From positions 104,359,279 through 104,423,278 of the forward strand of contig NC_044037.1 of NCBI RefSeq assembly GCF_901765095.1: a stretch of DNA of 64,000 bases. Reading direction: 5' to 3'. The DNA is from Microcaecilia unicolor. Lineage: Eukaryota. The notes beneath the pieces are model-generated. The model was not told the DNA's origin and made no database searches. It worked only from the letters and a program-made list of their open reading frames with translations. The position numbers and the translations under genes are program-made. Each line of letters starts with the position of its first letter. The first letter of the stretch is position 1. Below are positions 6,656-64,000 of the stretch, piece by piece.

Positions 6656-6722
6656 AGGGAACAAACGTCAACCATTCACTGAAGAAAATGCTGAAGAAGT
6701 GCATGTCAACTCGGTGGAACAA

Positions 6723-16486: not shown

Positions 16487-16645
16487 ATTATGTATCATAC
16501 CTGATAATTTTCTTTCCATTAATCATAGCTGATCAATCCATAGACTGGTGGGTTGTGTCCATCTACCAGCAGGTGGAGATAGAGAGCAAACTTTTGCCTC
16601 CCTATATGTGGTCATGTGCTGCCGGAAACTCCTCAGTATGTCAAT
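16487..16645. repeat. DIRS-like element terminal inverted repeat (3' ITR of the minus-strand element)
   Basis: It is the reverse complement of 21903-22066. Confidence 0.8.
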
Positions 16646-17139
16646 ATCAAAGCTCCATCCGCAGGACTCAGCACTTAGAGAATTACACCCACGAAGGGAC
16701 ACTCTGCCCAGCTCACCACCGCCGAAACGGGGGAGGGGAATTAACCCAGCTCATCCCCACACAAGTGGGGGAGGGGAATCTGTCCAGCTCATCCCCGCGG
16801 AGCGGGGGAGGGACACCACACCCGCCGATGCGGGGGGATCTGGCTTATCCTGCAACCGCAACCGCGGGAGGAGCTGACTGACCCTAACACCGCCGAAGCG
16901 GGAGGGGTACAAAGCTGCCCTACAGCCGCACGAAGCGGGAGGGAGTGCCGGCAGAATTTAAATCTCAATCCGGCCCCGTAAAACGGAGGGGAGAGGAATG
17001 CAGCAGCTCACTGTAACACAAACTCGTCTCAACTCTTGAAGAATCCAAGTGAAAGAAGAACTTGAACACGAAGTCCTCCTGAAGTAACTGAAGGCTAAAC
17101 TTGAACCTAAAATTCAACCAGAATATAAACAGTACAGAT

Positions 17140-17250
17140 ATCTGGGAGGGGCTATGGATTGATCAGCTATGATTAATGGAAAGAAAATTATCAGGTATGA
17201 TACATAATTTTACCTTCCATATCATCAAGCTGATCAATCCATAGACTGGT
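17140..17250. repeat. DIRS internal complementary region (ICR)
   Basis: 17140-17206 is the reverse complement of 16487-16553, and 17207-17250 is the reverse complement of about 22020-22063. Confidence 0.7.
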
Positions 17251-17504
17251 GGGATGTACCGAAGCAGTACTCACCCAGGGCGGGACATAGAAATCCCTGA
17301 CCGCAACACTGAAGCTCCAAACCGGGCCTCCGCCCGAGCAGCCACAGTCAAGCGGTAATGCCTGGCAAAGGTATGGGCCTTCCCTGCGGCCACCTAAGCC
17401 GCTGCAATGGCTTCCTTGCCCATCTTGCCACTGTAGGCTTAGAATCCTGCAGACCCTTACGAGGACCTGTAAACAGGACAAACAGATGATCCGATTTCCG
17501 GAAA

Positions 17505-19868: not shown

Positions 19869-19969
19869 TCGCCCATAAACGAGGACAGCCGTCCTCCAAT
19901 CTGCACTGGGGCGTGGACCAAGGCCCCGTCATTGGGTACAAGACCCTGGGGGAGGACCGGAGGGAGCAC
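19199..19969 (-). CDS. DIRS-like reverse transcriptase domain
   Basis: Carries RT motifs (FFFVIPKKGGSVRPILDLKGVN, FLASLDIKEAYLHIPI, FRALPFGLATAPRTFSKVM, YLDDWLI). Confidence 0.85.
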   Translation of the reverse strand: MLPPVLPQGLVPNDGALVHAPVQIGGRLSSFMGEWTTITSDAWALEVIRDGYKLEFCRPLKDGFVLSPCKSPVKAVVVQQTLNNLIRLGTVVPVPENQLGKGCYSFFFVIPKKGGSVRPILDLKGVNWALKVRHFRMETLRSVIVAVKAGEFLASLDIKEAYLHIPIWPPHQRFLRFAVMGRHFQFRALPFGLATAPRTFSKVMVVFAAFLRKEGVQVHPYLDDWLIQAPSYAECGKAVNRVVALLSSLGWIINWE

Positions 19970-21596: not shown

Positions 21597-21902
21597 ATGC
21601 CACGAGGAGAAGAATCGGGGAACCCCCTGCCCGCTATAAAAAGGTAAAAATTACCTGCTTGCCGCTCCGAGCTGTAACGACCTGGTGTCCCAGTGAGTAG
21701 CTGCAATAAACGTTTAAATAAACGTCAAAATAAACGCCTTTAAGGACGTTCAAAATTTTTTTTTTTTTAACGGAGCCAGCGGGAGGGGGGAGAAAAGGAG
21801 GGACCTGGCACCACCAGGTTTGCACTTGCTCAAAAGAGCCCTCAACCCCAGGCACTCAACAAAACCTAAGAATTAGGCTTGGAGGCGTAGCCAGAGCTGC
21901 TG

Positions 21903-22066
21903 CTGTGTGTGACCACCACCTGCTGAGATAGAGAACATACTGGGGAGTTTCCGGCAGCACATGACCACATATAGGGAGGCAAAAGTTTGCTCTCTATCTC
22001 CACCTGCTGGTAGATGGACACAACCCACCAGTCTATGGATTGATCAGCTTGATGATATGGAATGGA
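21903..22066. repeat. DIRS-like element terminal inverted repeat (5' ITR)
   Basis: It is the reverse complement of 16487-16645. A solo homolog lies at 2560-2700. Confidence 0.8.
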
Positions 22067-22261
22067 CAGATTTAACTGAAGACATTCAAAATACATTTAG
22101 GATATTGTGTACAATTCTGGAGACCACACCTTCAAAAAGATATAAACAGGATGGAGTCAGTCCGGAGGGTGGCTACTAAAATGGTCGGTAGTGTTTGTAT
22201 AGGGATATACTTAAATACCTCAATATGTATGCTTTGAAAGAAAGGAGGGAGAAGGGAGATA

Positions 22262-22345
22262 TGCAGGGCCGGTGCTAGGATCTCTGGCGCCACCCTGCAA
22301 ACTATCAGTTGGCACCCCCCCCCCCCCCCCCCCCCCCCCCCGGTC
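22262..22345. repeat. Terminal fragment of the CAGGGCCGTGCC MITE family followed by a C27 homopolymer
   Basis: cagggccggtgctaggatctctggcgccaccctgcaaactatcagttggcaccccc matches the reverse complement of 28775-28832. Confidence 0.55.
22315..22341. repeat. C27 homopolymer, one of about 14 G/C runs of 13 nt or longer in the window
   Basis: Direct inspection. Other runs are at about 235-250, 1747-1759, 5105-5119, 12577-12590, 13990-14024, 14417-14433, 15473-15493, 25628-25640, 41760-41776, 50894-50912, 55428-55446, 60375-60398 and 63914-63930. Confidence 0.9.
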
Positions 22346-22960: not shown

Positions 22961-23486
22961 CCACCACCCCCCTCCCGCGTACTGCAACCCTCCCAAGAAG
23001 ACCCACCTTAATCCTTAAGGCCGCCCCGGTGGTGTAGTGGCCTCTGTGGCTGCAGGGGCAGGAAAAAATCCCACTCTTTCCTGCTCTCTGCCACTCCTCC
23101 GTCTCCGCTTTGCTCATCTGGGTTGTAGCGGCGCCGCCGGGTTTTCAAAATGGCTGCCAAGACTTTGGCAGCAGTCTTGCGAGTCTGTCGCCGGAAGCCT
23201 CAGCAGCCATTTTTAAATATACAGCGGAAGCGCTCACAGCACAGAAGAGCAAAAGGAGATGGAGGAGGCGGCAGAGGGCAGGAAAGAGTGGGATTCTTTC
23301 CTGCCCTCTCAGAGGCCACTACATCACCAGGGCGGCCTTCAAGGATCAAGTCACTGGGACAAGTACATAGGATCACTAAGAGAGTGAAAGGGAGAGTAGA
23401 TGGCATGGATGGGCATTTTTCTATGATTCTACGTTACAGAGTGAGGGTTGGTTGCTCCACTGTGATTAATATTAGGACACATTTAC

Positions 23487-26481: not shown

Positions 26482-28832
26482 TTGCATTGCCTCCAATCAG
26501 GGCCGTGCCAATGCGGTAAGTGGGGTAAGCAAGGCAGGGGGGCGCCTGCCTTTGAGGGGCGCCGCTGCCCTGCCATCCCTGCCTTCCACTCGCTTGCAAA
26601 ATCTTTTACCTGAAGTTGTGATTCTCCTACCTCCCCTGCCCTCCTTTTCATGGCAAACTGGAAGTGAAAGCAACGCAACGCAACGCAGCAGTATTCACTG
26701 AGGCAGGCAGGCTCTTCAAGTTATTTGAGAGAATGCAACCAGATTGCTATATATGTCTTTGGTTTGGGGATAACTCCTCACTCAGGGTGAACTTCAGAGC
26801 TTGAACAGCATTCATATTAAAGAGACTGGGAGAATGGGCGTGCAAGTGGCAGATGAAGTTCAATGTTGACAAGTGCAAAGTGATGCATGTGGGTAAGAGG
26901 AACCCGAATTATAGCTAGGTCTTGCAAGGTTCCGCGTTAGGAGTTACGGATCAAGAAAGGGATCTGGGTGTCGTCGTCGATGATACGCTGAAACCTTCTG
27001 CTCAGTGTGCTGCTGCGGCTAGGAAAGCGAATAGAATGTTGGGTGTTATTAAGAAGGGTATGGAGTCCAGGTGTGCGGATGTTATAATGCCGTTGTATCG
27101 CTCCATGGTGCGACCGCACCTGGAGTATTGTGTTCAGTACTGGTCTCCGTATCTCAAAAAAGATATAGTAGAATTGGAAAAGGTACAGCGAAGGGCGACG
27201 AAAATGATAGTGGGGATGGGACGACTTTCCTATGAAGAGAGGCTGAGAAGGCTAGGGCTTTTCAGCTTGGAGAAGAGACGGCTGAGGGGAGATATGATAG
27301 AAGTGTATAAAATAATGAGTGGAATGGATCGGGTGGATGTGAAGCGACTGTTCACGCTATCCAAAAATACTAGGACTAGAGGGCATGAGTTGAAGCTACA
27401 GTGTGGTAAATTTAAAACGAATCGGAGAAAATTTTTCTTCACCCAACGTGTAATTAGACTCTGGAATTCATTGCCGGAGAACGTGGTACGGGCGGTTAGC
27501 TTGACGGAGTTTAAAAAGGGGTTAGATAGATTCCTAAAGGACAAGTCCATAGACCGCTATTAAATGGACTGGAAAAATTCCTCATTTTTAGGTATAACTT
27601 GACTGGAATGTTTTTACGTTTGGGGAGCGTGCCAGGTGCCCTTGACCTGGATTGGCCACTGTCGGTGACAGGATGCTGGGCTAGATGGACCTTTGGTCTT
27701 TCCCAGTATGGCACTACTTATGTACTTATGTACTTATGTAAATTTTAAAAGTGCTAAAAATACGTTTTTTAAGTATTTGCATTAAATCTAATTGCAGAAT
27801 TCAGGTGCTGGGAGTCTGTACTTGGTTGTCATATGCTCAGATTTGTTTAAATCATATGCAAATTACTCTGTTTTTGGGAGGTTCACATTTGCATATTTAT
27901 GGATCAAAAATGATGGGAATGTTTACAGCCTTAATGTTAGGTCATGGCTCTGATCAAAAGTGTGAAGTTTGATCCAAAAACGAAGGGTTTATCTAGTGTT
28001 TTTCACTAAGAATTCCCATGAGTGTCTGTATGTTAATCTGCATTCAAATAGAGCTCTCTGATTGGATGATCAGCTTCTGTTAGAAATCTGCCGGGAATGG
28101 AACAGAGTGAGACAGCAACTGATCGTCGGTTTGGTCAAGAGAGACATGCAGCTGTGAGTTCCTGTTTGTGTTGACTGAAATTATAAGAGTGCCTGATTAT
28201 GTGGTAAATGAGAAAATATGAGTGAAAAGAGGTTGGTGGAGTTTGAGGTTTCGCTAGTGAGAAAAGGATCTGAATATTTCAGGATTACTTGAAGTTTATG
28301 AAGAATAGAAAAGGGTGAATTTCAGTTTAAGAGTGTTTAAATCCTATAAGCTATATAAAGGCTAGGTAGATTTAAGTGACTGTAAGCAAGGAAACCTTAA
28401 TATTTGATCTGAAATAAATATTTGATCTGAGATAGTTGATCAGAGATAAATGTTTGATCTGAATTATATCCTTTGGTGCAAAGGAGATTAGAAAAAGAAT
28501 CTTTGGAAACTAAGAGGATTTTGCCCACATTTTGAATTAGCATTCCTATTTTGAGTTGGAAATCTTTGGAAACTAAGAGGACTTTGCCCACATTTTGAAT
28601 TAGCATTCCTATTTTGAGTTGGAAATCTTTGAAGTGTTATGAAAATACATTTTGCTTTAATGACATTGCTAAACTTTAGAGTCAGAGACTTATCAATGAG
28701 GGATACCTACAGTGCTATTTTTTCCTGAGGTCTGGCTTACTTGCCTGCTCCCTTCTGTTCCTGCTCTGCTAGGCGGAGAGGGGGCGCCAACTGATAGTCT
28801 GCAGGGGGGCACCAGAGACCCTAGGCACGGCC
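26482..28832. mobile_element. Non-autonomous DNA-transposon-like element with CAGGGCCGTGCC termini, carrying a nested CR1 fragment and internal 62-bp tandem repeats
   Basis: The 5' end is cagggccgtgccaatgcggtaagtggggtaagca and the 3' end ...ggcacggccctg is its inverted complement. The internal CR1 copy is at 26820-27735. Tandem repeats lie at 28395-28625. Confidence 0.55.
26820..27735 (+). mobile_element. 5'-truncated copy of the same CR1-like LINE (RT C-terminus plus 3' UTR and (tacttatg)n tail)
   Basis: Near-identical to 9830-10740. ORF 26922..27563 repeats the C-terminal RT sequence. Confidence 0.85.
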
Positions 28833-30303
28833 CTGCCTCCAATTAACCTTTAATCTTCTGGTCACTCCCACCCCAGCAATCATGATCACCCCAACACTAC
28901 CCCTCCCAGAATAATTAGGGTAAACGGGCTATTTGAAATTTTTCCATCCTCCTTACTGGTAGAAGTACCTCCTGTTTCTTTGAGTTTGTATGGCTGTCAG
29001 AGCCTATTAATTAAATGATTACAGGCTGGTGCTTCAAGGTCCAGCACGAGTCCACCTATCACAGCATTATGCCAGCATTGCGGAACAGTCTTCCTGTGGA
29101 ACTCTAGGTAGAACTGTCATTTAGTAGTCTGTCTGACTCACACTCTATGTTGCTGTTAACATTCACTTTTATCGCTGGCATTAAGATTCTTCTTCCTTAT
29201 TGGTTTTGCATTCAAGGAAGGTTACAACCCTAAACAAGGCTCATTGCCGAAACGCAGCCCGTGTTGGGTCTGGACTGTTCATGTTTTTTTTTTTTTTATT
29301 GGCGTATAAAACTTTTTTTATTTGGAAGATATTAGACTTCTAGAGTTCTTGGAAATTTTTTATTTTCTTTCACCCTGTGCTTGTCTATTTAAAAAATGAA
29401 TCACTGCCCTAAAAACACTTTTGTTCAAAAAAGAAACTTGGTGAGGGCATGGGATAGCACATCTTCAGAGCAAATCTGTTTTCTGACTTGTTTGATGATT
29501 TTGATGATGTTTTGGGGTTTTAGATCTTGTTGTTAATTTTATTATTATATTCTATAATATATGTTTTGTTAAAATATGGGACATGCTGGACATGTACCAT
29601 AGATCAGGCTAAACTGCAGCCTGCATAAGTTGTGTGTTGAGCTAGGCCTCACTAAAGGTCAAACGTACAGTCATTAAGAAGCTAGTTAATAGCGTGACAG
29701 CTGTTCTCCTAAAAGCTTGCAACAGAAACTGGTAGGGGAATTTTGGGGTAGCTGAGCAAGTGATAAGGAATAAAGCAGAACAAGGTTACTGGAAAATTTT
29801 ATGTCACAAGTGAGAATGGCCTTAATGGTAATTATAATTGTAAAATATATGATTAAGTAACTTTCGGTAAATAAGTGCTGATACTGCACAAGACATATGA
29901 GACATCTGTATCTTTGACGAAATAGCATGTGACTAAAAGGGTATAAAACTGACAGTCGGAATCATTAGTAGTTAGAGAAGTAATAACCGTGGAAATGCTC
30001 TTTGCGGCCTGGTTTTATCCTCTCACATGAGAATCGCTTATGAATTATTTTTGATTTATACTGCTTTGCTGTACCAACTAAACTGAAATATCGTATATCT
30101 GTGTACCCTTAATTGGTAAGTTTAATAAAATGCTTATTCTCATATTACTAAAGCCTTCTGTGTCTGACTCTCCTTCTTTAGTAATTATAAGTCATTCTAT
30201 TAGCTGTAGTGGTGGACACTGCAGCATCTGTGATATGTTACCTGAAGGAGGGCAGACAGTTCTGGAGTACTTTCAGTTTCTTTGTATAATTGTTTCTGTC
30301 CTG

Positions 30304-38390: not shown

Positions 38391-38489
38391 AATAATTTTT
38401 GAATGTGTTTTAGTGATATTCAGTTTTGATTTCATGATATTTATATCTACATATAGAAATCTTTCAAATAAATTAAGAAGCTGTCAAAT

Positions 38490-38870
38490 AAGTTAAAAAC
38501 AGAAGATAAAAAACAACAAAGCAGTGGAATCAAATGCATTTATTTGGAATAATACCCGACGTGGCCACGTTTCGCCCTCAGGCTGCGTCAGGGGTACAAA
38601 CTATCAAAAGTGTGTATATCATATACACTAGTAGTGAGATGAGAACAGTTATTCCAAAAATCTAGTTCCACTTTTCTGCTACTTCCCACTAAACTGATAT
38701 AACTGGAATAACTGTTCTCATCTCACTACTAGTGTATATGATATACTTATACACACTTTTGATAGTTTGTACCCCTGACGCAGCCTGAGGGCGAAACGTG
38801 GCCACGTCAGGTATTATTCCAAATAAAGGCATTTGATTCCACTGCTTTGTTGTTTTTTATCTACTGTTTT
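38490..38870. mobile_element. Foldback element with ~150-bp near-perfect inverted arms
   Basis: ggaataatacccgacgtggccacgtttcgccctcaggctgcgtcaggggtacaaactatcaaaagtgtgtatatcatatacactagtagtgagatgagaacagttattcc pairs with its reverse complement 38700-38820. The outer arms also pair (cagtggaatcaaatgc.../...gcatttgattccactg). Confidence 0.75.
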
Positions 38871-39289
38871 GTAAGCAGTTGTGTGCCTTTTTGTTTTTTT
38901 GGTTAAATAAGTTAAAAATAAATCTTTTGTCCTCCACCTTTTAAGGCACTGCCTATCCAACTGGAGCAACTTTTGACTTTTTACAGATGAATCACGCATA
39001 AGCAGTCCACTATAATATTTTACTATTGCTTTCAATAGCATTTGCTATTGTTTTGGGTGAACCAGTGACTACGCCTATTGACAGCAAGATCCGCATACTG
39101 GCTTCAACCCATACAATGGGCTAGATAGCCTCATACCGTTTCCTGTTCTCAATCTAACCTCCTTGATCAGAGCTGATGTTCAGCAGCACTGCCAGGTGAA
39201 GTGCCACAGAATATCGGTGGACAGGTGGTCTGTGTCCCGTCACTTAAGAAAACCCCGGGGACAGGGAAAAAGATGCAAACAGGGACTAG

Positions 39290-39800
39290 AACAGTGGCGT
39301 AGCCAAGGGTGGGCTTGGGTGGGCCCGGGCCCACCCACTTTGGGCTCAGGCCCACCCAGTAGCAGCACACCTATGATGGGGCTGGCAGAGATTCTCAAGC
39401 CCCACCAGCCAAAAACTCCCAACTCCCTCCTGCATACAGTACCTTATAAATAGCAGATCTTCGCCTGCAGCAAGCAGCGACTGATACATACTATTCGCAC
39501 CGGTCCCACAGCCTTCCCTCTGATATATTCCTGCCTATGCGGAAACAGGAAGTTGCATCAGAGGGAAGACTGTGGGGCCGGTGCGAACAGTATGTATCAG
39601 TCGCTGCTCGCTGCAGGCGAAGATCTGCTATTTACAAGGTATTCAGAGGAGGGGGATGTTTTTAAAGATCATATGGCATGCAGGCGAGAGAGGGAGAGAC
39701 CAAATCACATGTGGGACAGGGCGAAGTTCTTCTGCCCACCCATCTTGGGCCCAGGCCCATCCAAAATTGGGTGTCTGGCTACGCCCCTGGACTGGAAAAC
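39290..39800. mobile_element. Palindromic/foldback element centred near 39540
   Basis: ctgatacatactattcgcaccggtcccacagccttccctctgat pairs with atcagagggaagactgtggggccggtgcgaacagtatgtatcag. The outer pair is ggcgtagccaagggtgggcttgggtgggcccgggcccaccc / gggcccaggcccatccaaaattgggtgtctggctacgcc. Confidence 0.65.
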
Positions 39801-41981: not shown

Positions 41982-42289
41982 TCTGGAGAGAGAGAGGAAA
42001 TAAGTCAGAGAACCAGAGACACAGGCAAAAGGGAAAAAAGATGAATGATGGGAGGAGGAAATTTCCTCAATACTGAGAATATTCTGTAGTTCTTAAAAGA
42101 AAAGTTGTTCTTGCAGAATACACACTGGCCCCCAGCTCCTATGTTCAGGGCATGTTACAATCACATGCTATGAGTTTCTGTGAGTGCCTCCCATCTGTTC
42201 AGAAGCAGCATTGCCAACTGTCAACAAACGTGCTGACATTTAAACAAATGGCTATAAAATAATTTCATACCAATGTAAATTAGTCCCAA

Positions 42290-42620
42290 AAAAAAGCACA
42301 AAGGGCTGTCAAGAGTGGTACGTGTGCTTTATTGATAACCTGACAAGGGCCATGTTTCAGAGTCAGAAACGCCTGCCTCAGGGGTCACCTCAGACAACCG
42401 ACACTGACTGCATAAGCTGTGGCTCAAATCAACATAATGAAAATCCACTCTAAAGACAAAGCATCAAAATCTTGGTGCAGAAAAACCCGCTGTGTAAGTG
42501 CGTCAAAAATTAGACCATTTTTGGTGCGCTTACATGGCGTTTTTTTCCGGACCAAATGGATCCCTCAGGCAGGCGTTTCTGACGCTGAAACCCAGCCCAT
42601 GTCAGGTTATCAATAAAGCA
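42290..42620. repeat. Inverted repeat pair (~60-bp arms: gtgctttattgataacctgacaagggccatgtttcagagtcagaaacgcctgcctcagggg and its complement) with a 170-bp spacer
   Basis: The arms are 42323-42385 and 42555-42615. A third partial copy is at 42840-42875. Confidence 0.6.
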
Positions 42621-45600
42621 CCACCATGCTGCTTCCCAAAGCCAGGGCCTGAGTCCAAACGTTTGGATACCTTGGTGCTTTGTAGCTTTTACTATATGAG
42701 ACGTGGGGACCCCTGACGCAGGTGCTAGTCACCGAAACACGGCCCGTGTCGGGTCTTCTTGTCAAGGCTCATTCGTTAAAGAACTGTGTTCCATTTTTAA
42801 AGGCTGTTTTTTTTTGTTTGTACTTCGTTCCCTCTCTTTTGTTATATCCAGGTTATCAATAAAGCACACTTGTACCACTCTTGAAAGCACTTTGTGCTTT
42901 TTTTGGACTTCTTGTGTTGTGTAATCTGACCCTCTCCGTTGTATGTTGCTATACCAATGAAAAGGTCATGAACAATAGGACCTGCCTCTGGTACTGTGGA
43001 CTCAGGCCCTGGCTTTGGGAAGTAGCATGGGATTTAGGGATCTTCCATGCTTACAAGGACAAATTTTAACAAAAAAGGTGTGCACAAAATAGGGATAGCA
43101 AAACAGGATTCAGTAATACAATAAAAAGGTAAGTCTGGTTGTTTAACTACAATCTATCTGTAGAACTATATTTACATAAGCTGCCAAGCCCAGTAAGAGT
43201 TCTGGGAGTGGCAGCCACATCCCTCATAAAGAGACATCCTTTTAGAGAGAGATTACCACCACAAATAGGTCTCTCTCATTGAGGCCACCAGGTCTTTGAA
43301 ACCCACAGCGCTGAGGTAATATAAGTTTACCATCCCCTGGTACCACACTCATGCCAAGGCCTCACAGAGAAAATCCTGTATAGCAGCAAGATAAAGCCTT
43401 CAGCTACAGAATAAACATCACAGTGAAAGGAAAGTTGGAAGAGGCAGGCGAGGTAGTGACGGAAAGAGCGAGAAATGGGGGAGAGGAGGTCAGAAGCAAG
43501 GGAAGTGGATAGGGACTGGGAGGATTAGAAATGAGGAGGCAGACTACAGAAAGAAAGACGTTGGGAGGGCGTGGGCAAAGCCCTTCCACCTACAGGATTT
43601 GAGAATTGCACCTTGCACTGTCAGTACAGAGCGATATCAGTCAGGGCTTCAATAATGCTTCCTCTGCAAGTCTTTCCAAATCTTTACCCCTATCCAACTA
43701 GAAGTACTGGGCATTTGCTGAAATATCAGAGTTATGAGCACATGCATGTTTACCTGCATTACGAACACTGTCAGATTTGCTCTAACCTCCTTAGGGTGCT
43801 GAAGGCCTAAGGAGATACCCTTATCCTCAGTCACGAGCCCGTTCTAATGATACACAGCCTTCACCACAATGCCCTCTAGAACTCAATTCTATCACTTACC
43901 TGTGTTATGAAAAACAGCCTTCAGGCCCAGGATGCATTTGGGCACATTGAGAGCAGTATGCTCTAGTTTCATACTGCTTTTACAGCTCCCCGACGGCGAT
44001 TTCTACGTTTATAAACACGCACACATTCTCTTTCCACTTTCTAGGCGTCTTCCTCTTTCCTTTCACTGCTCCCTGCCTTGCCTCTGCCTGGTTTCCGAGA
44101 CAGGTTCAGGAGAAGCTCTCTTGACTACAATCCCTATACCTAGGGAGGCGGTATTGGCCTGATAACCACCACAGGCCAGGATTACTCAGACCTAGCTCTG
44201 CTCTGCTGCGGATCTCTACCAAAAGGAAGGCAGAATCCTTTATCCTGACTATAGTAGTCCCTGCCATCCCTCAGTAAAGAAAAAAAATTGCATGAGCTGG
44301 TAACTCAGTACCTCTACATCAACACATATCATGTAACCGAATACTGCTTAATGAAAAGCAGAACAGAACATTGGAGTTTTAGCTGGAATGTCAAATGAAA
44401 TTATTGTTGCCTTTTTGTGATTTTTAGACTTAATTTTAGAGATTGTTTAGCCACGACCTCTGTTGTCAATCCAACAAAACTGGGGATACTGCCCTGGACC
44501 AACCATCATCTGCTAGGTTGGCAAACACCCACCTTTTCTTTCTGCTACCCCTACTCCAGCTGCAGGCATCCCAATGATACACATGAACAGTGTTTGTGCC
44601 TAGAATTTGTTCATATGCTGGTAGCTCGAGTGGGCTGACCGCTGGAAAAACAGGGCAGTGCCCGAGGGCTCACAACAGTAGGGGGCTGACTCTCCCCTAA
44701 TTGCCATCAAATTTAATCATTTTGATAGGTAGTTAGGGGCCTAAATCAAAGTCTGCCTCTGGTGAGTAGATTGGTGTATTTTATAGTCCATGTGCATACT
44801 TGCAAACTCTGCCCATGATCCACCATTCCTGTAAACGCCTACTGGAACAATAAACATAATCCTGTCATGGTTTGTATTTTATAAGAGGAGAAACAAGCAC
44901 AGGATATCTACACTACCAGACAAACAACACAGCAGAGATGACAAAAATAGCTGGAAATGTTTTAATAATATTCATATGACTTGACATGGCCATATTTCAG
45001 CTTAAATGGCCTGCATCAGGAGTCTGATTTTATCACCACAGGAATATAAAATTCAATGAGGCTTGAGTGTGCTGAGGCTTAGAAACCTGTCAATCCTGTA
45101 TTGCCCCTGACTATATGTTGCCCCTTGTTACTTTGCCTTCTGGCAATTCAGCCTTTGGTAGAAAAGACTACCTGTGTCTTCATTTTTCTACCTGTAAGAA
45201 AGTAGTTTATAAATCTATATGTTCAGCTACGGTTTCATACCAAGATACTAAATGTTGGAATTCCTTCCCGAAAAATATAAGATTGTTTTTAGGTAAGTTT
45301 TTTTAAATCTTTCCTTTTCAAAAAATTTCTGTCAATTGATCCTGGTGCCAAATCTCCCCCTTCCATTCTCCCCATTATGCTTTATTACTGAATTCTTTCT
45401 ATATTTACAATTCTTTCCTTACTAAGATGTGCGGGTTTGTTTTTTGTTTCATATAGCTTGTTAGCTACATTGAACTCAAAATGTATGGGAAAATGTGGGG
45501 TATGTATACATAAATGAATGAGCTGGGTTGGCAACAAGCTTTGCTTACCTGACTACAGCAGAGATTGTCCTTCAGAGGCAATAGGGCATCATTAGGCATG

Positions 45601-46150: not shown

Positions 46151-47469
46151 GAACAAAAATCAGAAAAAGCGTCAAGGGCTGTCAAGCTGGGGATACTCAA
46201 GAGTGCTTTATTGATGACTCTTCAGTATTCCATGCTTGACGGCGCTTGATGCTCTTTCTGACTTTGTGTTGTGTGCTTCGACCCTTTCATTTGCCGCTTT
46301 CTTCCTACAACAATCAGCGTCTGTAAAACTGGCAAACTTTGGGAGGAATCTACCTCTCCAGGCCCACTTGGTGCTACGCTCTCGAGTCTTAAACTGACCT
46401 GATACCTCTCATCGTCTTGGGCTAAACACTACTAACAGTCCCAGTATTAGTTGTAAGGATAACGTCAGTTCCAAGCAGGCGGTGTCAGTGGACCTTCCGG
46501 TTCCTCCTGTTGCCTCTAGTTCCAGACCTGCAGCCACTGGTCCTTCTAAGATGCACAGCCATGTGGCCCAGCACCTTCTTTTTAAAGAAAAGTCAGCAAG
46601 TCCTTTCCCTTCTCCTTCCCACTGCCATACCAGCAGCAAAACACCACAGCTCACATGCAGGGCCGCAATCTCTTTACCATGGCTGTCAGTCCTGCCCCCT
46701 CTGACATCACCTTGCTGTTCTAGGGTTCTGGGGCAGAGCTGCCAACCCCATGTGTAAGTTGTGGTGTTTTGCTCCGCTGCTGCTGATCAGGAAAAGTAGC
46801 AGTATTGACATAGTAACATGGAGGGGCATAATCGAACGGATTGACATCACCTTGCTGTTCTAGGGTTCTTATCAATGGGGCGGAGCTAGGGTGGGGGTGG
46901 GGCTAGAATGGGGCCCCACCAAATTGGTCTGCATAGGGCCCCCACACTTGCTAAGACTGGCCCTGACTGGGCAGTGGCGGCGCCACTCATAGGCTGCCTG
47001 CAACCTGCACCAGGACTTCTTCCCTGAACAGTCCCACCCCTCAATCCCCCTGTACTGTGCAAATATAAAGAGATGCAAATTTCAAAAACTGACATATTTC
47101 AATCACTTTACTATAGGTTAACAAATACAAATAAAACAAAACATGGAAAATATAATATCATTTTAGTGGACTAAATACATTTTTCAATTAGCTTTCAAAG
47201 GCCAAAACCTCTTTCCTCAGGTCAGGACAGTATACTGCTGTTATGGTATTCTGTTCTGACACAAGAAAGGAGGGTTTGGTCTCCAAACATTAGTCAAAAA
47301 TGTATTAAAATTAGTCCAGCAAACATTACTTCCATTTTCTGTATTTATTAACACAGCTACCATACTACTTTATCCTAAACTAAAAATAAAATTCATTTTT
47401 TCCTACCTTTGTGGTCTGGCCGTTTACTGTTTTTAATCGTGTTGGTCCCAGTCTCTTGTTTCTTCTTTG

Positions 47470-48480
47470 CTCAATCTTCAACTTTCCCCCCTTTCCATCC
47501 AGCATCTACCCCCTCTCTCCCCCTTTTCCTTCCAGCATCTGCCCCCTCTCTCTCTCCTTTCCATCCAGCATCTGCCCCCTCTCTTCCCTCTTGCCATCCG
47601 GCGTCTATTTTCTCCATCCATGTGTAGTTTTTCTTCTCTTTTCCCTTTCCCTCATCTCTGTCAGTATGCGTCTCCTTCCTCTTTCTTCACTCCCCTCCAT
47701 CCATATGCAACTCCTTCCTCTTTCTTCCCTCTCCTCCATCCATGTCCATTTTTCCTCTCTCCGCCCCTCCATCCATGTTCATCTCACTTCCTCTCTTCCC
47801 TCTCCTCCATCCATGTCCAGCATTTTTCCTCTCTCCACTCCATCCATGTGCATCTCCTCCTGTCTTCCCTCCCCTCCATCCATTTCCAGCATTTCTCCTG
47901 CCCTCCCCTGCATCCATGTACAGCAACTCTCATCTCTCCCCTGCCCTCCCAGCCATCAATATTCAGCAACTCTCCTCTCTCCCCTATCCTCTCCTGCATC
48001 CATGTCCAGCAATTCTCCTCTCTCCCCTGCCCTCCCCTGCATCCATGTCCAGCAACTCTCCTCTCTCCCCTGCCCTCTCCTGCATCTATGTCCAGCAACT
48101 CTCTTCTCTCCCCTGCCCTCCCCTGTATCCATGTTCAGCAACTCTCCTCTCTCCCTTGACCTCCCCTGTATCCATGTTCAGCAAGTCTCCTCTCTCCCCT
48201 GACCTCCCCTGTATCCATGTTCAGCAAGTCTCCTCTCTCCCCTGCCCTCCCCTGTATCCATGTTCAGCAACTCTCCTCTCTCCCCTGTCCCCTGCCCTCC
48301 CCTGTATCCATGTTCAGCAACTCTCCTCTCTCCCCTGTCCCCTGCCCTCCCCAGTATCCATGTTCAGCAACTCTCCTCTCTCCCCTGTCCCCTGCCCCCC
48401 CTGTATCCATGTTCAGCAACTCTCCTCTCTCCCCTGCCCCCTGCTCAGCATCAATGTTCAGCGATTTCTTCCCTGCCCTA
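47470..48480 (+). repeat. Pyrimidine-rich satellite array with a ~43-50-bp unit (catccatgtccagcaactctcctctctcccctgccctcccctg)
   Basis: A tandem periodicity is visible, and the long ORFs at 47411-48504 are its artefacts. Confidence 0.8.
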
Positions 48481-48490
48481 CCTCTTAAAA

Positions 48491-48688
48491 CTAATTTTAC
48501 CTGACTGAACGAAAGCAGCAGAGTAAAGCCGGCTCCGTCTTCACCTTTCTTCTTCCCTCTCAGCTGTGGTCCCGCCCTCATTTCCTGTTTATGCAAGGGC
48601 AGGAGCACAGCTGAGAGGGAAAGAGAAAGGTGAAGACGGAGCCTGTACTCTACTTCTTTCACTGCCATTCAGTCATGTAAAATTAGTT
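48491..48688. repeat. Palindromic hairpin core of the same MITE family (~85-bp arms), abutting the satellite array
   Basis: ctaattttacctgactgaacgaaagcagcagagtaaagccggctccgtcttcacc... pairs with ...ggtgaagacggagcctgtactctacttctttcactgccattcagtcatgtaaaattag. Confidence 0.6.
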
Positions 48689-48915
48689 TTATGAGCGGCA
48701 GGAAAGCAAGGAGGGCAGGTTTGAAAATATTGGGGGTGCTCGAGCACCCACAGCACCCATGGAGTCGGCGTCTATGTCTGGGACCAAAGAAATATATTCA
48801 GTTAACCGGAGTGTGCACTTAACCGTTGTGACCCAAAGAAGCTTGACATCTGATAAACATATGTACTGTACTGATTATAAGTACAATATACAGTCTCTGT
48901 TAACTGACGTTAGGC

Positions 48916-49746
48916 TTACTTGAAGTAATCAGTCATAGTCCTCTGTACACTATTGTGTCTGTGAGTTCCATAGACTACGTCTGCCAGACGGTAAAAACTG
49001 TCATAGCACTGACATCCAGTGACCTCCAGATAGGCCCGCACGGTGTTAAGACTCTCCAGCACTCTTGCAAAAGTGACAGGAGGTTGTTGAATTTCGTCAG
49101 CATGTGCCTCACTGCTCATTTCATCATCTGTTTCATCATCAGCCGTTGCCTGCGTGTCGGCCCATATCTCGACATCAGTGCTGTCGTCAGCTGTTTGTAG
49201 ATCGTAATCAACAGCTACGTAGTGATGAAACTCCTCTTCAGTAACACCGGCTGGGATGTCAATAGCCTGTTCATCTGATGCATTTGCAACAGCTGCATCT
49301 GTTTCGTCCCTCTCTACATCCTTAACAAAGCTTGCCCGCTTGTAGCAGTTCACAATGGCTGCCTGTGTAACATGATTCCAGGCTTCTTTCTGCTTTTGTA
49401 GGGAATCCAACAGTGATAGATTACAAGCCAGTTCAACAGCACGTTTATCTTTGCCAGTCTGGTCATCCATAACGCTCATCAGACAACGTAGCACAAGAGC
49501 CCAATAATGTTTTTTGAAATTGGCTATTATGCCCTGATCCATAGGTTGGATCAGAGAGGTAGTGTTTGGTGGCAGGAAGACCACCTTGATGTTAGACAGC
49601 TTGATATCATCACTGTGTGCAGCACAATTATCACAAAGCAACAAAATCTGACGCTTTTGTGCCTGCATTCTAGTGTCTAACTTCTTTAGCCACTGCTTCC
49701 AAATTTCCCCAGTCATCCATGAATTTGCGTTAGCCTCGTATGACAC
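48916..49746 (-). pseudogene. Tigger/pogo DDE transposase catalytic domain (frameshifted relative to upstream pieces)
   Basis: Shows LLLCDNCAAHS...VVFLPPNTTSLIQPMDQGIIANFKKHY, as in the Tigger1/2 DDE region. Confidence 0.8.
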
Positions 49747-49752
49747 AGGAAG

Positions 49753-50097
49753 TCACTTAACATTCTTGAAGCAATGGGGCTGTTTGCTCTTTCTAATGAC
49801 GAGTGGTTCCAACTTCTCACTCCCATCCATATTGCAGCAAAGGAGGATCGTCAGTCGGTCCTTCGACGTTTTACTTCCTGTAGTTATGGCTTGTTTGAAT
49901 GCAAATGTTCCATCAGGAATCGCTAGCCAGTAGAGACCGTTTTCGTCAGCATTGAAAATGTCACGAGGTGCAAACTCGTTCAAGATGGTAGGAAGACCTG
50001 AAACAACCCAATTTTCAGCACCAAAGTCATCAGCGTCTTGTTTCTCACCATGCTGTTTCTTGAATTTTATGTTCTTCTTCTTCTTCCATCTTTCCAA
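49753..50097 (-). pseudogene. Tigger/pogo transposase middle segment
   Basis: Shows FNADENGLYWLAIPDGTFAFK...TILLCCNMDGSEKLEPLVI. Confidence 0.7.
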
Positions 50098-50480: not shown

Positions 50481-50992
50481 CTTTCACTTATTCTGCCTGT
50501 GGCAGTTAACCAATGAGATTTCAAATTTATCGCCCCTTTATCACGTGCCAATCGGCTTCCATATTCCGTGCCTGCGCTTATGCGGAGTTTTTCCTGCAGA
50601 GGAGAGGTCTTAAACCATGCATATAAGCAAATCTTGCACTTATCAGTGGTGCGCTAAACCGAAGTTTGTCCCCATAGAAGCTGATGGCGCCAAAAACGGG
50701 ACCGAAGTATGGCATGCACTTAAATGGAGTGCACTGTACACGTTTGCAGGGCCCAAGTTATCTGCAAGACAAGTCGGTTTCACTTTCTCTGCTGCCAGAG
50801 GTGAGGATGAGGAAGTTAACTTGCACAGCCACTCCCTAGTTCCCTGCACCAAGAGGAGGAGAAATGAAAAGCAAGGAGGAGATTTAACTTAGCGGGGGGG
50901 GGGGGGGGGGGGAGCAGAGTCCTTTCCGGTAGGAAAGAAGGAAGGGTTTCATCTTGCTGTCACCTCTCCCACCTGTCTATTCTGTGCATTTC

Positions 50993-51472
50993 TGGCAGGG
51001 CCGTGCCGATGCGGTAAGCGGGGTAAGCACCGCAGGAGGGTGCCCACCTCTGGAGGGCACCGCCGCAGTGCTTACCCTCGCCCTGCGCCGCCGAGGCCTT
51101 TAAATCTTTTACTTGCAGTCGCAGCAGCGTCTGTGAAAACGGAGCGCTGCCGACGTCTCCCTTCCCTTGCACTCGTTGGTTCCCTCAGTGTCCCGCCTTC
51201 TTCTGACATCAGAAGAAGGCGGACACTGAGGGAACCAAGAGCGCGAAGGGAAGGGAGACGTCGGCAGCGCTCCGCTTTCACAGACGCTGCTGCGACTGCA
51301 AGTAAAAGATTTAAAGGCCCCCAGGGCGCGCAGCGATAATCTTCACGGGGGGGGAGAGGGGTGCGCGCGCGCCAACTGTTCTTCTGCGGGGGGGCGCCAA
51401 CTGTTCTTCTGCGGGGGGGGGGCGCCAACAGTTCGTCTGCGGGGGGGCGGCATAGACCCTTGGCACGGGCCT
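50993..51472. mobile_element. MITE of the same family (CAGGGCCGTGCC...GGCACGGGCCTG) with a near-perfect ~110-bp-arm internal palindrome centred near 51213
   Basis: Its 5' end is near-identical to 26482-26560. A perfect hairpin (ctttaaatcttttacttgcagtcgcagcagcg...ttctgacatcagaa...) sits inside. The 3' end is the inverted terminus. Confidence 0.65.
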
Positions 51473-52324
51473 GATTTCTCGGTTCCTCGGCTGGCATTCC
51501 CAGCACTGTGTTCTACCTTTTTTTCCTCTGGTCTCCTTTATTTATTTAAAAGATTTATAACCCACACAGCCTTGCCCAGTGGTTTCTCTATCCAGAAATA
51601 TTTGGGATGGCAAGCCCAAAAGACATTTCAGCACATCATGCCCACCACATCACACACCCTCCCCCTCCACCCCCCTTTTTTAAATTAGCAATATAAGATA
51701 TCCTGGTCTCTCCCTTTACCTAGATTCATCTACCAGGTTAAAAAAAAAACACCATCCTTTCACTGCCAGATCAGGTAATCAATCAGTTAGTTTTGTGTAT
51801 GATGACTATTTATGGTTCAACAATTTTTATTGATAACATATCAAATACAACCACATGACATAAGCATGATAAAGTGACAGCGGGTGATGCTCTTCCATGT
51901 ATAAATATTGAGATTTTAAGTCTGTCCCCATCTGCTTTATGACAAGGACAACTGACCATTTTAGTAGCCACCCTCTGGACCGACTTTATCCTGTTTATAT
52001 CTTTCTGAAGGAGCGGTCTCCAGAATTGTACGCAATATTCTAAATGAGATCTCACCAGAGTCTTATACAAATCATCACTTCCTTTTTCCCACTGATCATT
52101 CCTCTCCCTATGTACCCAAGCATCCTTCTAGCTTTTGCCTTTACCTTTTCTACCCGTTTGGCCACCTTAAGATCATCACATATGATCACAGTTAGTACTT
52201 AAGCTGAAACTGGCTAATTTGTGGGCAGTCTGGGAGTAGAGACTGCACTTATGTAGTTAAGTTCCAATGTTCAGTGCTTTAACTGCCTAAGGTAACCCCC
52301 TAAATAGGATGCACCTGATACACA

Positions 52325-53384: not shown

Positions 53385-53770
53385 CAGTGGTGTGCTGGAG
53401 CCGGCTCGCGGTTGTTACATTTTTAAAGCTCTTGTGAGCCAGTTGTTCTGGCAGGCGAGCCGGCTCCCAAGGGTGACGCAACCCGGCAGTAAGTGAGGTA
53501 AGCATGGCAGGAGGGCGCCACAAGCCATGCTTACACTCCTGCCACTCTGGGGGGTTTAAATCGTTGATTTACCTCCATTGCAGCAGCTGCAGTGGAAGCC
53601 CGTCTCTAGTCTTCCCTTCTTTCCCGTCAGTGTTCCGCCTTCTTCTGATGTCATTTCCTCTTTCCGCGAGGGCGGGACACTGACAGGAAACGATGGGAAG
53701 GCTAGAGATGGGCTTTCACTGCTGCTGCTGCGACGGAGGTAAATCAACGATTTAAACCCCCCAGGAGGCA
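53385..53770. mobile_element. Diverged copy of the same MITE family with an internal palindrome (53530-53760)
   Basis: Shares ...ggcagtaagtgaggtaagcatggcaggagggcgcc... and a hairpin gtttaaatcgttgatttacctccattgcagcagc.../...gctgctgctgcgacggaggtaaatcaacgatttaaac. Confidence 0.5.
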
Positions 53771-53789
53771 GGAGCAAAACGAGGGATGT

Positions 53790-54990
53790 TTGGGGAAGGG
53801 CGGGCAGGTGGACATTGGAGCGGGAGGGCAGGGGAGAGGAGCATCAAAGCCATCGATGGAGATGGATGGGAAGGCAGGGCCCAGGGAGAGAGGAGAAGTT
53901 GCTGGACATGGAGGGGAGGGGAGGGCAGGGGAGAGAGGACAGCTGCTGAATATGGATGGATGGAGGGGGAGGGGAGAGAGGAGAATCGCTGGGTATGGAT
54001 GGCTGGAGGGGAGCGAGGAGAATCGCTGGGTATGGGTGGCTGGAGGGGGGGCAGGGGATAGAAGAGAATCACTGGGTATGGGTAGCTGGAGGGGGAGGCA
54101 GGGGATAGAAGAGAATCGTTGGGTATAGGTGGCTGGAGGGGGGCAGGGGAGAGAGGAGAATTGCTGATATGGATGAATGGAGGGAGGGCAGGGGAGAGAA
54201 GAGTTACTGGACATGGGTGGAGGGGAGGGCAGGGGAGAGGAGAGTTGCTGGATATGGGTGGCTGGAGGGGGGACAGGGGAGAGAAGAGAATCGTTGGGTA
54301 TGGACGGCTGGAGGGGGGCAGGGGAGAGAAGAGAATCGCTGGGTATGGACGGCTGGAGGTGGGGCAGGAGAGAGAAGAGAATCGCTGGGTATGGACGGCT
54401 GGAGGGGGGCAGGGGAGAGAAGAGAATCGATGGGTATGGATGGATAGAGGGGGGCAGGAGAGAGAAGAGAATTGCTGATATGGATGGATGGAGGGAGGGC
54501 AGGGGAGAGGAGAGTTGCTGGATATGGGTGGCTGGAGGGGGGACAGGGGAGAGAAGAGAATCGTTGGGTATGGACGGCTGGAGGGGGGCAGGGGAGAGAA
54601 GAGAATCGCTGGGTATGGACGGCTGGAGGGGGGCAGGGGAGAGAAGAGAATCGATGGGTATGGATGGATAGAGGGGGGCAGGAGAGAGAAGAGAATTGCT
54701 GATATGGATGGATGGAGGGAGGGCAGGGGAGAGGAGAGTTGCTGGACATGGATGGATGGAGTGGAGGGCAGGGGAGAGGTGAGTTGCTGGACATGGGTGG
54801 ATGGAGGGGTGGGCAGGGGGGAGAGGAGGATTGCTGGACGAGTGAATGGAGTGGAGGGCAGGGGAGAGGAGGGTTGCTGGACATGGATGGAGGAGAGGGA
54901 AGGGAGTGAGAAGAAATGCTGGACATGGATGGAGGGGAGGGAAGAGTGAGGAAGGAGATGAGATGAGGGAAAAGGAAAAGAGGAGAAAAA
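53790..54990 (-). repeat. The same satellite in inverted orientation (purine-rich on the + strand)
   Basis: The unit gggtatggacggctggaggggggcaggggagagaagagaatcgct is the reverse complement of the 47470-48480 unit. Confidence 0.8.
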
Positions 54991-55489
54991 CTGCATATGG
55001 ATGAAGAAAATAGGCAGATTCACTGGACAGTCAAGTCTGCGGAGGACCCAGCTTTTATTTATGAATGTAGGGCAAGAAATGAAGAAGAAAAACGGAAAGT
55101 AAAGAAATAAATGGAAAGGAAGCCCTGGAAACTGAGTTAAGAGGACAGATAGCAGCAGAATCGGATACTGGGCCAGCATGATCAGAACAACAAAGTCACC
55201 AGACAACAAAGGTCACCAGACAAACATTATAGTGTTTGGAATATGTCCACTTTGAGAATCAGGTGCTCAACATTAAAAGTTTATATTTATTTACTTATTT
55301 ATGGCATTTTATCTCACATTAAACATGAATTAGATTGGAACCTGGGATCATTTAGTTTTTTTTTTCCTAGAGTAATGCATTGAACTCTCCCCCCAGGCTC
55401 TCTCTCCAGCTATAGCCAGCTCTGCAATTTGTGGGGGGGGGGGGGGCGCAGAGGTGGACCGGGGAGAGAGCATGTTGTTAAACATTTAC

Positions 55490-56340
55490 CAGCACACCAC
55501 TGTGTGGTCCCCCTGACATCCCAGGAAAGCAATAGGGCATCCTAGGGGGCACTGCGGTGGACTTCATAAAATGCTCCTAGGTACACATCTCACCATTTCT
55601 CTCTTACCTTGTGCACTGAGCCCCCCAAAACCCACCCAAAACCCAGTATCCCCAACTGTACACCACTACACCTGTATGGGGCACCTATAGGGGGCACCTA
55701 TATGTGGGTACAGTGGGTTTCTGGTGAGTTTGGGAGGGCTCACAGTTTTCTCCACAAGTATAACAGGTATGGGGAGGTAGGAGCCTGGGTCCACCTGTCT
55801 GCAGTGCACTGCACCCATCACTAGACTACTCCAGGGACCTGCATGCTGTTCTAATGGACCCGAGTATAACATTAGAGGCCGGCAAGTAATGTTTTTAATC
55901 ACATTTTCTGGGGGTGGGAGGGGGTTAGTGACCACTGGGGGAATAAGGGGAGGTCATTCCTGATTCCCTCCAGTGGTCATCTGGTTATTTAGGGCAACAT
56001 TTTGTGCCTTATTCATAATAAAAACAGGTCTAGCTCAAAACGTCTAAGTTTTAGTCCTGGATGGTTTTGTTTTGTTCCATTATGTCTGAAAAACGTCTAA
56101 GTCTTAGGAACGCCCTGAACATGCCCTGGCACTTCCCCTTGAGATTTGGATGCACTTCTGGCGGACTTCAGAGAAAAACATCTAAAAATAGGTTTTGAAA
56201 ATGCTGATTTGGACGTTTTTGTGAGAAAAACATCCAAATGCAGACTTACACCACTTTTTGGATGTTTTTCTCTTTTGAAAATGAGCCTGTTATTTGTGAA
56301 AATCCTTGCGATAGAATGGCCAGGATAATACCAGTATTGA
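55490..56340. repeat. Diverged, inverted copy of the 36012-36966 element family
   Basis: Long stretches are the reverse complement of 36060-36900 (for example ccactgggggaataaggggaggt..., gtacacctccatacaggtgtagtgg...), and GGACGT subterminal repeats are present. Confidence 0.65.
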
Positions 56341-63480: not shown

Positions 63481-63825
63481 AGCCCAGCCAGCACCTTGTA
63501 GAAAGCAAGAGATGTGCATAATTGCACACCAGTGGGGCACGTCACATGGAATCTTATGAATCATCATGAAACTGCAATTAAGAGCTTCTCCTGCTGCCAG
63601 CTATAGAGGAAGACAACATGATAGATTGCACTGTACTTCACCAGACTGGATCAAACATTTGAATGTCTGGTCCCTATCCAATGGGTGGCCAACAAGGTGG
63701 CCAAAGCCACGCCTACCACTCTATGCAGGCCCCAGTCACTTATGCTTAAATGCTCATTGGCAAGTCTCCACCATGCCAACCATTTAAGCAGCCAAACGTG
63801 ATAGGGAAGATATGTGGTTACAGGG

Positions 63826-64000
63826 GCGGCCCATGACAATCTGGCGCCTGAGGCAAGGAAAGAGCTGCTGGCCCAGCTCCTCCACCTCCCCTGTGACAGT
63901 CCCCCTTCTTTCCCCCCCCCCCCCCTTCCTCAAATTTACCTTTTCTTGCTTTCCAAAAGATGGTAGCAGCAGGCCGGCAGCAATTCCCACAGGCCCCTTC
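63826..64000. repeat. Partial copy (one arm) of the 5335-5730 foldback family, cut by the window end
   Basis: Shows cctgaggcaagg...ccttcctcaaatttaccttttcttgctttccaaaagatggtagcagcaggccggcagcaattcccacaggc. Confidence 0.6.

Follow-up and report, generated by a model that had tools for sequence, protein, structure and literature searches.

Diverged hAT-like MITEs with an internal palindrome in a 64-kb caecilian sequence

The flagged repeat and its relatives are very probably non-autonomous (MITE-type) hAT elements of Microcaecilia unicolor or a very close relative, belonging to diverged subfamilies that are built on one architecture. This shared architecture consists of a TIR of 12–13 bp, CAG(G/T)G(G/C)CGT(G/A)(G)CC, followed by 5′ subterminal repeats, a palindrome with an asymmetric center of ~25 nt, a G-rich and repeat-prone 3′ side, and a second TIR. 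Within the window, by which we mean the whole 64-kb stretch of DNA that was analyzed, we found eight related hAT-type members (A, B, the 22263 fragment, H39, H5, H64, C and E; Table 1), and by the sum of member lengths this group occupies ~9% of the window. H39, H5 and H64 were absent from an earlier note on this DNA and were found by inspecting other palindromes of the window, while nhmmer profiles of the arms and 5′ ends yielded no further members there. Our analysis supports the reading offered by that note, a non-autonomous hAT-like DNA transposon family; a more apt description of the set is several diverged subfamilies whose TIRs are related but different.

The window (GC content 44.8%) is eukaryotic and dense with vertebrate transposons, and no tRNA genes were found in its 64 kb. 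It spans the 5′ half of the gene for MVP (major vault protein), of which eight collinear minus-strand exons, running from 41951–41832 down to 3398–3231, cover the first ~400 residues; a protein search with these exons returned no caecilian MVP orthologue. Some of the hAT-type members are housed in MVP introns, and the remaining members lie upstream of MVP. The ORF2 of the CR1 in the window matches [quoted passage not shown] at 99% identity.

Table 1. Positions of the hAT-type members, their parts and other mobile elements in the window
Feature	Position	Strand	Remarks
A, long member	26498–28835	+	2338 bp; TIRs 12/12, TSD 8/8
A TSD	26490–26497 / 28836–28843		CCTCCAAT on both flanks, 8/8
B, complete element	50996–51473	+	478 bp; both TIRs and 8-bp TSD
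B left TSD	50988–50995	+	ATTTCTGG; 7/8 match to 51474–51481
B right TSD	51474–51481	+	ATTTCTCG; 7/8 vs ATTTCTGG
B 5′ TIR	50996–51007	+	CAGGGCCGTGCC, exact 12-mer; 11/12 complementary to 3′ TIR
B 5′ subterminal region	51013–51076	+	GGTAAGC pair at +18 and +27 from tip
B long internal palindrome	51078–51336 (end 51333/6)		arms ~116–125 nt
B 3′ subterminal tandem repeat	51362–51451	+	25–28-bp unit GCGCCAACTGTTCTTCTGCGGGGGGG, three copies
B 3′ TIR	51462–51473	−	CAGGCCCGTGCC on minus strand; one mismatch to CAGGGCCGTGCC
3′-terminal fragment of A/B-type element	22263–22327	−	~62 bp; broken at poly-C/G run
H39, complete related MITE	39292–39789	+	498 bp; TIRs CAGTGGCGTAGCC / CAGGGGCGTAGCC, 11/12
H39 TSD	39284–39291, 39790–39797		GACTAGAA / GACTGGAA, 7/8
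H39 palindrome	39420–39658		center GCGGAAACAGGAAGTTGCATCAGAG
H5, partial related element	5328–5740	+	5′ TIR CAGGGGTGGCCCAATGC
H5 palindrome	5395–5694		center GAGGAAACAGGAAGT
H64, H5-type element	63821–64000	+	5′ TIR CAGGGGCGGCCCATGAC and start of left arm; cut by window end
C, degenerate member	53468–53774	+	5′ region homologous to A/B from 53468
C palindrome	53536–53774		arms 89% identical; asymmetric center in inverted orientation
C minisatellite	53822–55013	+	45-bp unit, ~24 units; G-rich strand; abuts hairpin
E, degenerate member	48465–48787	−	includes ~75 bp of flanking element sequence
E palindrome	48465–48709		arms 84% identical; center GCATAAACAGGAAAT on minus strand
E minisatellite	47485–48464	−	33–43-bp unit, ~20 units; abuts hairpin
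Full-length CR1 LINE	7552–10742		endonuclease and RT domains
DIRS element	about 16514–22062		inverted ITRs, LAP2alpha-like gag
pogo/Tigger DDE_1 ORFs	48916–50097	−	

The ends of the elements carry most of the family assignment. The flagged element, B, is real but begins at 50996, 3 bp from the start at 50993 that had been given for it. The exact 12-mer CAGGGCCGTGCC is found at 26498 (+), 28835 (−) and 50996 (+), and with one mismatch at 51473 (−); in its degenerate form, CAGGGNNGNNCCNATGC, the terminus occurs three times against 0.29 expected. The sequences at 20538 and 44651, which also come close to the terminus, were put down to chance, with no element behind either. A and B align over their first ~120 bp and last ~75 bp at 74–82% identity and have unrelated interiors. 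The earlier note had listed five copies as sharing these termini, which holds for the two complete elements A and B and for one fragment, but the remaining listed copies are without them. The copy placed at 22262–22345 is indeed related, but it covers only the last ~60 bp, on the reverse strand.

In our TSD scan, a CA/TA...TG/TA pair had to be accompanied by a match between the flanking 8-mers with at most one mismatch. Only three elements have both ends present (A, B and H39), and in all three the TSD is 8 bp long, the length on which the hAT assignment had been staked; the chance probabilities of these matches are 1.5e-5 for A (8/8), 3.8e-4 for B (7/8) and 3.8e-4 for H39 (7/8). The same scan gave zero matches in broad regions surrounding C, E and H5, suggesting that the false-positive rate of the rule is low. 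As to target patterns, which come from three sites only, position 7 is A in CCTCCAAT, position 2 is T in ATTTCTGG, and GACTAGAA of H39 reads TA at positions 4–5 and A at position 7. The target preference of Buster-type elements is nnnTAnnn. That of Ac/Hermes-type elements has the consensus nTnnnnAn (PMC10368747), to which the three TSDs, from three sites only, show no clear fit.

Short motifs recur just inside these ends. GGTAAGY occurs twice, at +18 and +27, in both A (26515, 26524) and B, and once in C, such that 6 of its 17 occurrences in the window fall within the first 80 bp of these three elements; in B, an inverted GGTAAGC copy at 51070–51076 is predicted to form a small hairpin. On the 3′ side, the unit GCGCCAACTG...GGGGG is present three times in B, once in A and once in the 22263 fragment, and the GCGCCAACTGTTCTTCTGCGGGGGGG unit of B has a single copy in A (28785–28810) and another in the 22263 fragment. 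We infer that GGTAAGY and the GCGCCAACTG-type units are putative transposase-binding subterminal repeats.

Size and content agree with a non-autonomous class of element. B and H39, at 478 and 498 bp, are non-coding and bounded by TIRs and a TSD, and both fall within the usual MITE size of <~800 bp; the ORF over B contains no Pfam domain. A, which would measure about 1.4 kb if its CR1 were removed, is longer, a non-autonomous relative that is not strictly "miniature." As had been noticed earlier, it carries a nested CR1 fragment and tandem repeats: a CR1 3′ fragment (26822–27734) is 99% identical to 9829–10742 of the window's full-length CR1, and a 63-bp tandem duplication lies at 28498–28631. 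With the CR1 left out, A shows no Pfam domain and no coding capacity. It also has no palindrome, of which it keeps just a center-like motif and the initial ~20 bp of the left arm. If any copy is young, A, with its perfect TSD and perfect TIRs, is the most likely one. Recent activity, which the earlier note had thought possible, is not demonstrated by the copies in the window, since they are 20–45% diverged and no two of them are above ~82% identical.

The internal palindrome is the second shared character. It measures 240–300 bp in five members (B, C, E, H39 and H5) and sets in at about 70–130 bp from the 5′ tip. The near-perfect palindrome that the earlier note had described in the flagged copy was confirmed at 51078–51336, with arms 91–94.7% identical over about 225–250 bp and, as single-stranded DNA, a folding energy of −213 kcal/mol (z = −24 vs shuffles). 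Left and right arms of the same element are 91% (B), 89% (C), 88% (H39), 84% (E) and 75% (H5) identical, while arms compared between elements are 55–76% identical against a shuffle null of 55 ± 5. Because the arms are alike within but barely between elements, the arm sequence must have been almost wholly replaced while palindromy was kept, and as judged from sequence comparison the arms are thus in concerted evolution. The falling arm identity is as expected of copies that were near-perfect at birth and have been decaying since.

At the exact symmetry center lies a short asymmetric motif, GGAAACAGGAAGT, which is the best-conserved part of the palindrome: it is identical at 13/13 positions between H5 and H39 and at 10–11/13 in C and E, and the center 13-mer is counted 11 times in the window against 2.6 expected. 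In B, the asymmetric motif has been replaced by a fully mirrored center (GTCCCGCCTTCTTCTGA-CA-TCAGAAGAAGGCGGAC), which corresponds to the left half of a C-like center in mirror image. This mirrored center gives direct evidence that sequence is copied from one arm to the other. The stretch that follows the hairpin on its 3′ side readily undergoes tandem expansion, with 27 bp repeated three times in B, 63 bp repeated twice in A and long arrays in C and E; the post-hairpin segment of H39 scored 24 against the array unit (null 12.9 ± 2.4), in a comparison between sequences of low complexity.

C and E bring these features together. The units of their arrays are homologous (unit-to-unit score 80), the E array is inverted relative to that of C, and both minisatellites lie on the same side of the hairpin. 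Their asymmetric centers are reverse complements of each other, also relative to the array. As the arrays are homologous and same-sided, yet the centers are reverse-complemented, the loop has inverted between the arms. The earlier note had counted both, at 53385–53770 and 48491–48688, as copies with the named termini; they are distant hairpin relatives, but the CAGGGCCGTGCC termini are absent from both, and neither has a TIR/TSD pair. C is weakly related to B and A, at 60–63% identity over the hairpin and 82–88% over a 34-bp 5′ block, and the only ties of E to the family are the shared center motif and a 64% identity to C over 150 bp. The borders of E are formed by a 10-bp inverted repeat, TTGGTCCCAG, with no direct TSD. 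The string CAGTGGTGTGCTGGAGCC at 53385, where C had been thought to start, was rejected as a terminus: it occurs only once in the window and lacks both a TSD and an inverted partner.

Links among the members were found by word-7 blastn for H5–H39, H5–C, C–B, C–E, C–A and H5–H64 (E 1e-3 to 1e-16), with those between subfamilies resting on 60–70% identity. The start of H5, CAGGGGTGGCCCAATGC, is comparable to CAGGGCCGTGCCAATGC in A; no 3′ end or TSD was identifiable for H5. Homologies noted by eye between the outer ends of C and E, between the 5′ ends of E and H39, and between the 3′ ends of H39 and B did not beat shuffled controls and were discarded. A "Repeat X" (22094–22238 and 51893–52046) found beside the 22263 fragment and B is a CR1-like RT fragment, and we therefore regard its adjacency to them as coincidental.

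The conservation of the center invites a functional reading, in which the palindrome and its ~13–25-nt center (GCGGAAACAGGAAGT beside GGGCGGGAC) would be a selected functional module, regenerated by fold-back copying and spread widely in caecilian genomes, including into or upstream of genes such as MVP. We consider this unlikely. If it were true, the module might serve as a cis hairpin for mobilization, as a compact ETS/GC-box promoter, or as a source of hairpin RNA that feeds small-RNA pathways. The promoter and hairpin-RNA readings are speculative, since no Rfam family was reached and B is without the motif yet has intact ends.

It is less likely still that the elements are composites, in which a separate mobile element of the foldback or hairpin type has landed in an ordinary hAT MITE. 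Such an origin would suit the finding that A has termini without a palindrome while C and E have a palindrome without recognizable termini, and that the TIRs accompanying the hairpin are of three different types. However, the spacing from the 5′ tip to the palindrome, about 70–130 bp, is comparable among B, H5, H64, H39 and C, A and B share the junction from the 5′ subterminal region into the left arm together with the first ~20 bp of that arm, and there is no TSD or other insertion signature around the palindrome inside B. The nesting would also have to predate all of the subfamilies, which amounts to saying that the palindrome is part of the element.

We also think it very improbable that the hairpins are exapted loci, whether hairpin-RNA/miRNA genes or ETS/GC-box modules, held under host selection. 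Their extreme stability, the location of several copies within or upstream of MVP, and a center that is more conserved than the arms and resembles the familiar ETS (ACAGGAAGT) and GC-box (GGGCGGGAC) motifs would be in keeping with exaptation. Yet no Rfam matches were obtained at gathering thresholds, and the sub-threshold matches were to generic miRNA-hairpin models, at 25–60% of the gathering score and on both strands. The arms decay copy by copy (91, 89, 88, 84 and 75%), as in neutral ageing after insertion, and B has no center motif, yet its TIRs and TSD are intact.

As for the superfamily, the view that the CAGGG terminus is hAT-like was upheld by tips of CAGGG/CAGTG, TIRs of 12–13 bp, 8-bp TSDs and the absence of any encoded protein domain, and a tip of the YARNG type is the rule in the hAT superfamily. 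Assignment to another TIR superfamily with ~8-bp TSDs is scarcely credible: an 8-bp TSD is not exclusive to hAT and no transposase is tied to these elements here, but the TIRs of P elements are 31 bp long and begin with CATGATG, and those of Merlin begin with GG, whereas CAGGG/CAGTG tips and 12–13-bp TIRs suit hAT. Dissimilar ends with short subterminal repeats likewise suit hAT (PMC10368747).

The window yielded no autonomous partner whose TIRs match, and a metagenome scan for the 5′ terminus gave zero matches. The window does contain a hAT transposase relic, at 6122–6504 and continuing at 10726–11665 past insertions of SINE-like and CR1 sequence. In the PDB it matched only two Hermes entries (E 0.85, over the motif TDRGANV...CSSHLL), and DBD_Tnp_Hermes, ZBED1_RNase-like and Dimer_Tnp_hAT domains are found in its database homologues; the contigs of these homologues, from other organisms (JGI/ENA metagenome assemblies and Logan run assemblies), held no matching TIR or hairpin. 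The relic, which lies just downstream of H5, was considered as a partner for the MITEs and rejected: it is 5′-truncated, and its 3′ subterminal repeats (GGGGATGG/GGGGAC, 11850–11990) are unlike those of the MITEs. It is probably unrelated to them, and we treat its adjacency to H5 as coincidence.

For diverged non-autonomous hAT elements of this architecture, the following course of events can be proposed. A hAT transposase would be supplied in trans by an autonomous element and would recognize the TIRs together with asymmetric subterminal repeats, the candidate sites being GGTAAGY twice on the 5′ side and the GCGCCAACTG-type units on the 3′ side. The element would then be excised and reinserted across an 8-bp staggered cut, generating the 8-bp TSD. 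The palindrome would be heritable cargo of the lineage, dispensable for the chemistry of transposition, and its palindromy would be kept by recurrent copying of one arm onto the other, through fold-back or template-switch synthesis or through intramolecular conversion. During this process the loop could invert between the arms, as C and E suggest, and the segment 3′ of the hairpin could give rise to tandem arrays, 27 bp three times in B and 43–45 bp 20 or more times in C and E.

In another caecilian, Ichthyophis, hAT ranks first in abundance among the DNA-transposon superfamilies, and MITEs are present as well (PMC8498967). Caecilian genome papers describe a dominance of DIRS and LINE elements, and a genome paper found class II elements to be about 20 times rarer than class I (PMC10195157). 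In M. unicolor, the "Unknown" repeat fraction is very large, and a newer pipeline gave a larger classified fraction with prominent TIR contributions. Literature searches with the TIR and subterminal sequences gave no relevant matches, with five TIR strings returning primer matches only. The kind of element is well known, including hAT MITEs with internal hairpins and MITE-derived minisatellites, and these particular families appear to be uncurated; the flagged element is an ordinary kind of junk DNA that has probably gone uncatalogued. The value of this result lies mainly in annotation. The recognizable TIRs, TSDs and diagnostic hairpin center mark the family for curation, and curating a group that makes up ~9% of the window would shift class II numbers.

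Compared with known non-autonomous hAT elements and hAT MITEs, such as maize Ds, Drosophila Mar (PMC3517528) and the mammalian MER1-type hAT-Charlie MITEs, the caecilian elements have the same short imperfect CAG-NG TIRs, 8-bp TSDs and non-coding content, as well as variable interiors between shared ends and a presumed mobilization in trans. They differ in their 240–300-bp palindrome, whose asymmetric center is conserved across diverged subfamilies. Hermes has an 8-bp TSD, short imperfect TIRs and dissimilar ends with subterminal repeats that are bound by BED domains; its subterminal motif is AAG(T/C), and its STR1/STR2 form a quasi-palindrome (PMC10368747). In the elements described here, GGTAAG(C/T) likewise occurs twice, 9 bp apart at +18/+27, with an inverted third copy. 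Hermes differs in being autonomous and in having 17-bp TIRs, and the resemblance between the motifs, seen here at the level of sequence only, may be coincidental.

Foldback-type elements and Galileo have long inverted repeats that contain tandem repeats, and the arms of one copy are more alike than arms of different copies. They share with the caecilian elements long inverted arms that evolve in concert and an internal expansion of tandem repeats. Their long inverted repeats are, however, their termini, whereas the palindrome here is internal and short hAT-type TIRs stand at the ends, and they belong to other superfamilies with other TSDs. Tandem repeats associated with MITEs are exemplified by Xstir and Xmix of Xenopus, and miRNA hairpin precursors derived from MITEs by MADE1/mir-548. 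As in these, an internal segment of the MITE has grown into minisatellite arrays (C and E), and a palindromic MITE, if transcribed, can fold up as a long hairpin, although for the caecilian elements Rfam gave only sub-threshold generic matches. The palindrome dynamics and the conserved center are neat but not surprising; concerted evolution of a palindrome, flip/flop of its loop and expansion from MITE to minisatellite, none of them unprecedented, occur here together as a clean natural example within short-TIR elements.

We found that residues ~3-400 of the major vault protein (MVP) are encoded within window positions 41951-3231 by eight collinear minus-strand exons, whose products are 65-83% identical to human MVP and whose database matches are named MVP, with PF01505. 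Given these exon positions, several members of the MITE family are therefore intronic: H5 (from 5328), the 22263 fragment (a 3′-terminal piece), the complete element A (26498-28835), which lies 155 bp from an MVP exon, and H39 (39292-39789). Upstream of the MVP start codon lie the degenerate member E (palindrome 48465-48709), the complete element B (50996-51473), the degenerate member C (palindrome 53536-53774) and H64 (from 63821).

MVP exons and mobile elements of the window
Feature	Position	Strand	Remarks
MVP exons	41951-41832, 41327-41142, 34413-34291, 26343-26203, 23908-23771, 23720-23502, 16144-16019, 3398-3231	minus	
hAT transposase pseudogene	6122-6504 + 10726-11665; 3′ subterminal region to ~11998	+	
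Palindromic MITE	11999-12263		265 bp; ends ACTGTATA...TATACAGT
CR1 LINE, near full length	7552-10742		endonuclease and RT ORFs
CR1, 5′-truncated	26822-27734		nested in A
DIRS-type tyrosine-recombinase retroelement	~16514-22062		inverted terminal repeats 16514-16641 vs 21935-22062, 97%
pogo/Tigger-type DDE_1 transposase ORFs	48916-50097	-	Pfam 3e-29; between hairpin E and B

Around hairpin E, a perfect 10-bp inverted repeat, TTGGTCCCAG/CTGGGACCAA (47442-47451 / 48778-48787), bounds a block consisting of the minisatellite, the hairpin and ~75 bp. With the tips taken as CAG/CTG, the 8-bp flanks of this block are mutually reverse-complementary (7/8) rather than direct repeats, and no TSD was found. 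We could detect no link between the neighboring pogo/Tigger ORFs and the hairpins or arrays on either side of them.

The hAT transposase pseudogene within the window is unlikely to be the partner of these MITEs. It is 5′-truncated, SINE-like and CR1 insertions totaling ~4.2 kb separate its two parts, and its 3′ end, which carries the subterminal repeats GGGGATGG/GGGGAC, is interrupted by the palindromic MITE. Between the end of H5 and the start of this relic lies a 365-bp segment with a 16-bp direct repeat, CCTAATAGTAGGGCTG, on either side (5725-5740 / 6106-6121), which may represent the TSD of some insertion or a rearrangement junction.

Very recent CR1 activity is evident in this genome: the copy nested in A is 99% identical to the 3′ 914 bp of the near-full-length CR1, whose ORF2 shows 99% identity to an annotated M. 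unicolor protein. The DIRS-type element contains a 65-nt inverted pair (16479/17152, 100% complementary), and its gag ORF matches the Pfam family LAP2alpha.

Palindromic repeats are unusually abundant in this genome. A 344-bp palindrome at 23007-23350 comes from a family other than the hAT MITEs; its arms hold a tRNA-like GGTGGTGTAGTGG box, motifs resembling ETS and YY1 sites, CGCCGGAAGCC and GCAGCCATTTT, occur at its center, and it gave the top sub-threshold Rfam hairpin match (MIR839, 82/200 bits). Several other long palindromes or elements with inverted repeats, none of them related to the MITE family, were observed at 38465-38901 (154-nt arms at 38465/38748), 14578-14758, 42282-42909, 56170-56273 and 6588-6813. 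The last consists of two inverted copies of a SINE-like repeat that ends in (AAAT)n tails and is present at least six times in the window.

The core of the family hairpin center, the short asymmetric motif at the middle of its palindromes, is the 11-mer AAACAGGAAGT, which we also found at 516-526 in a hAT element on the JGI metagenome contig 3300027544|Ga0209568_1042130. There it occupies the strand opposite to a nearly intact, distantly related hAT transposase gene, 28 bp upstream of that gene's start codon. This placement may be due to chance (roughly p 0.01-0.04); it could also hint at a transposase promoter as the source of the MITE hairpin center.
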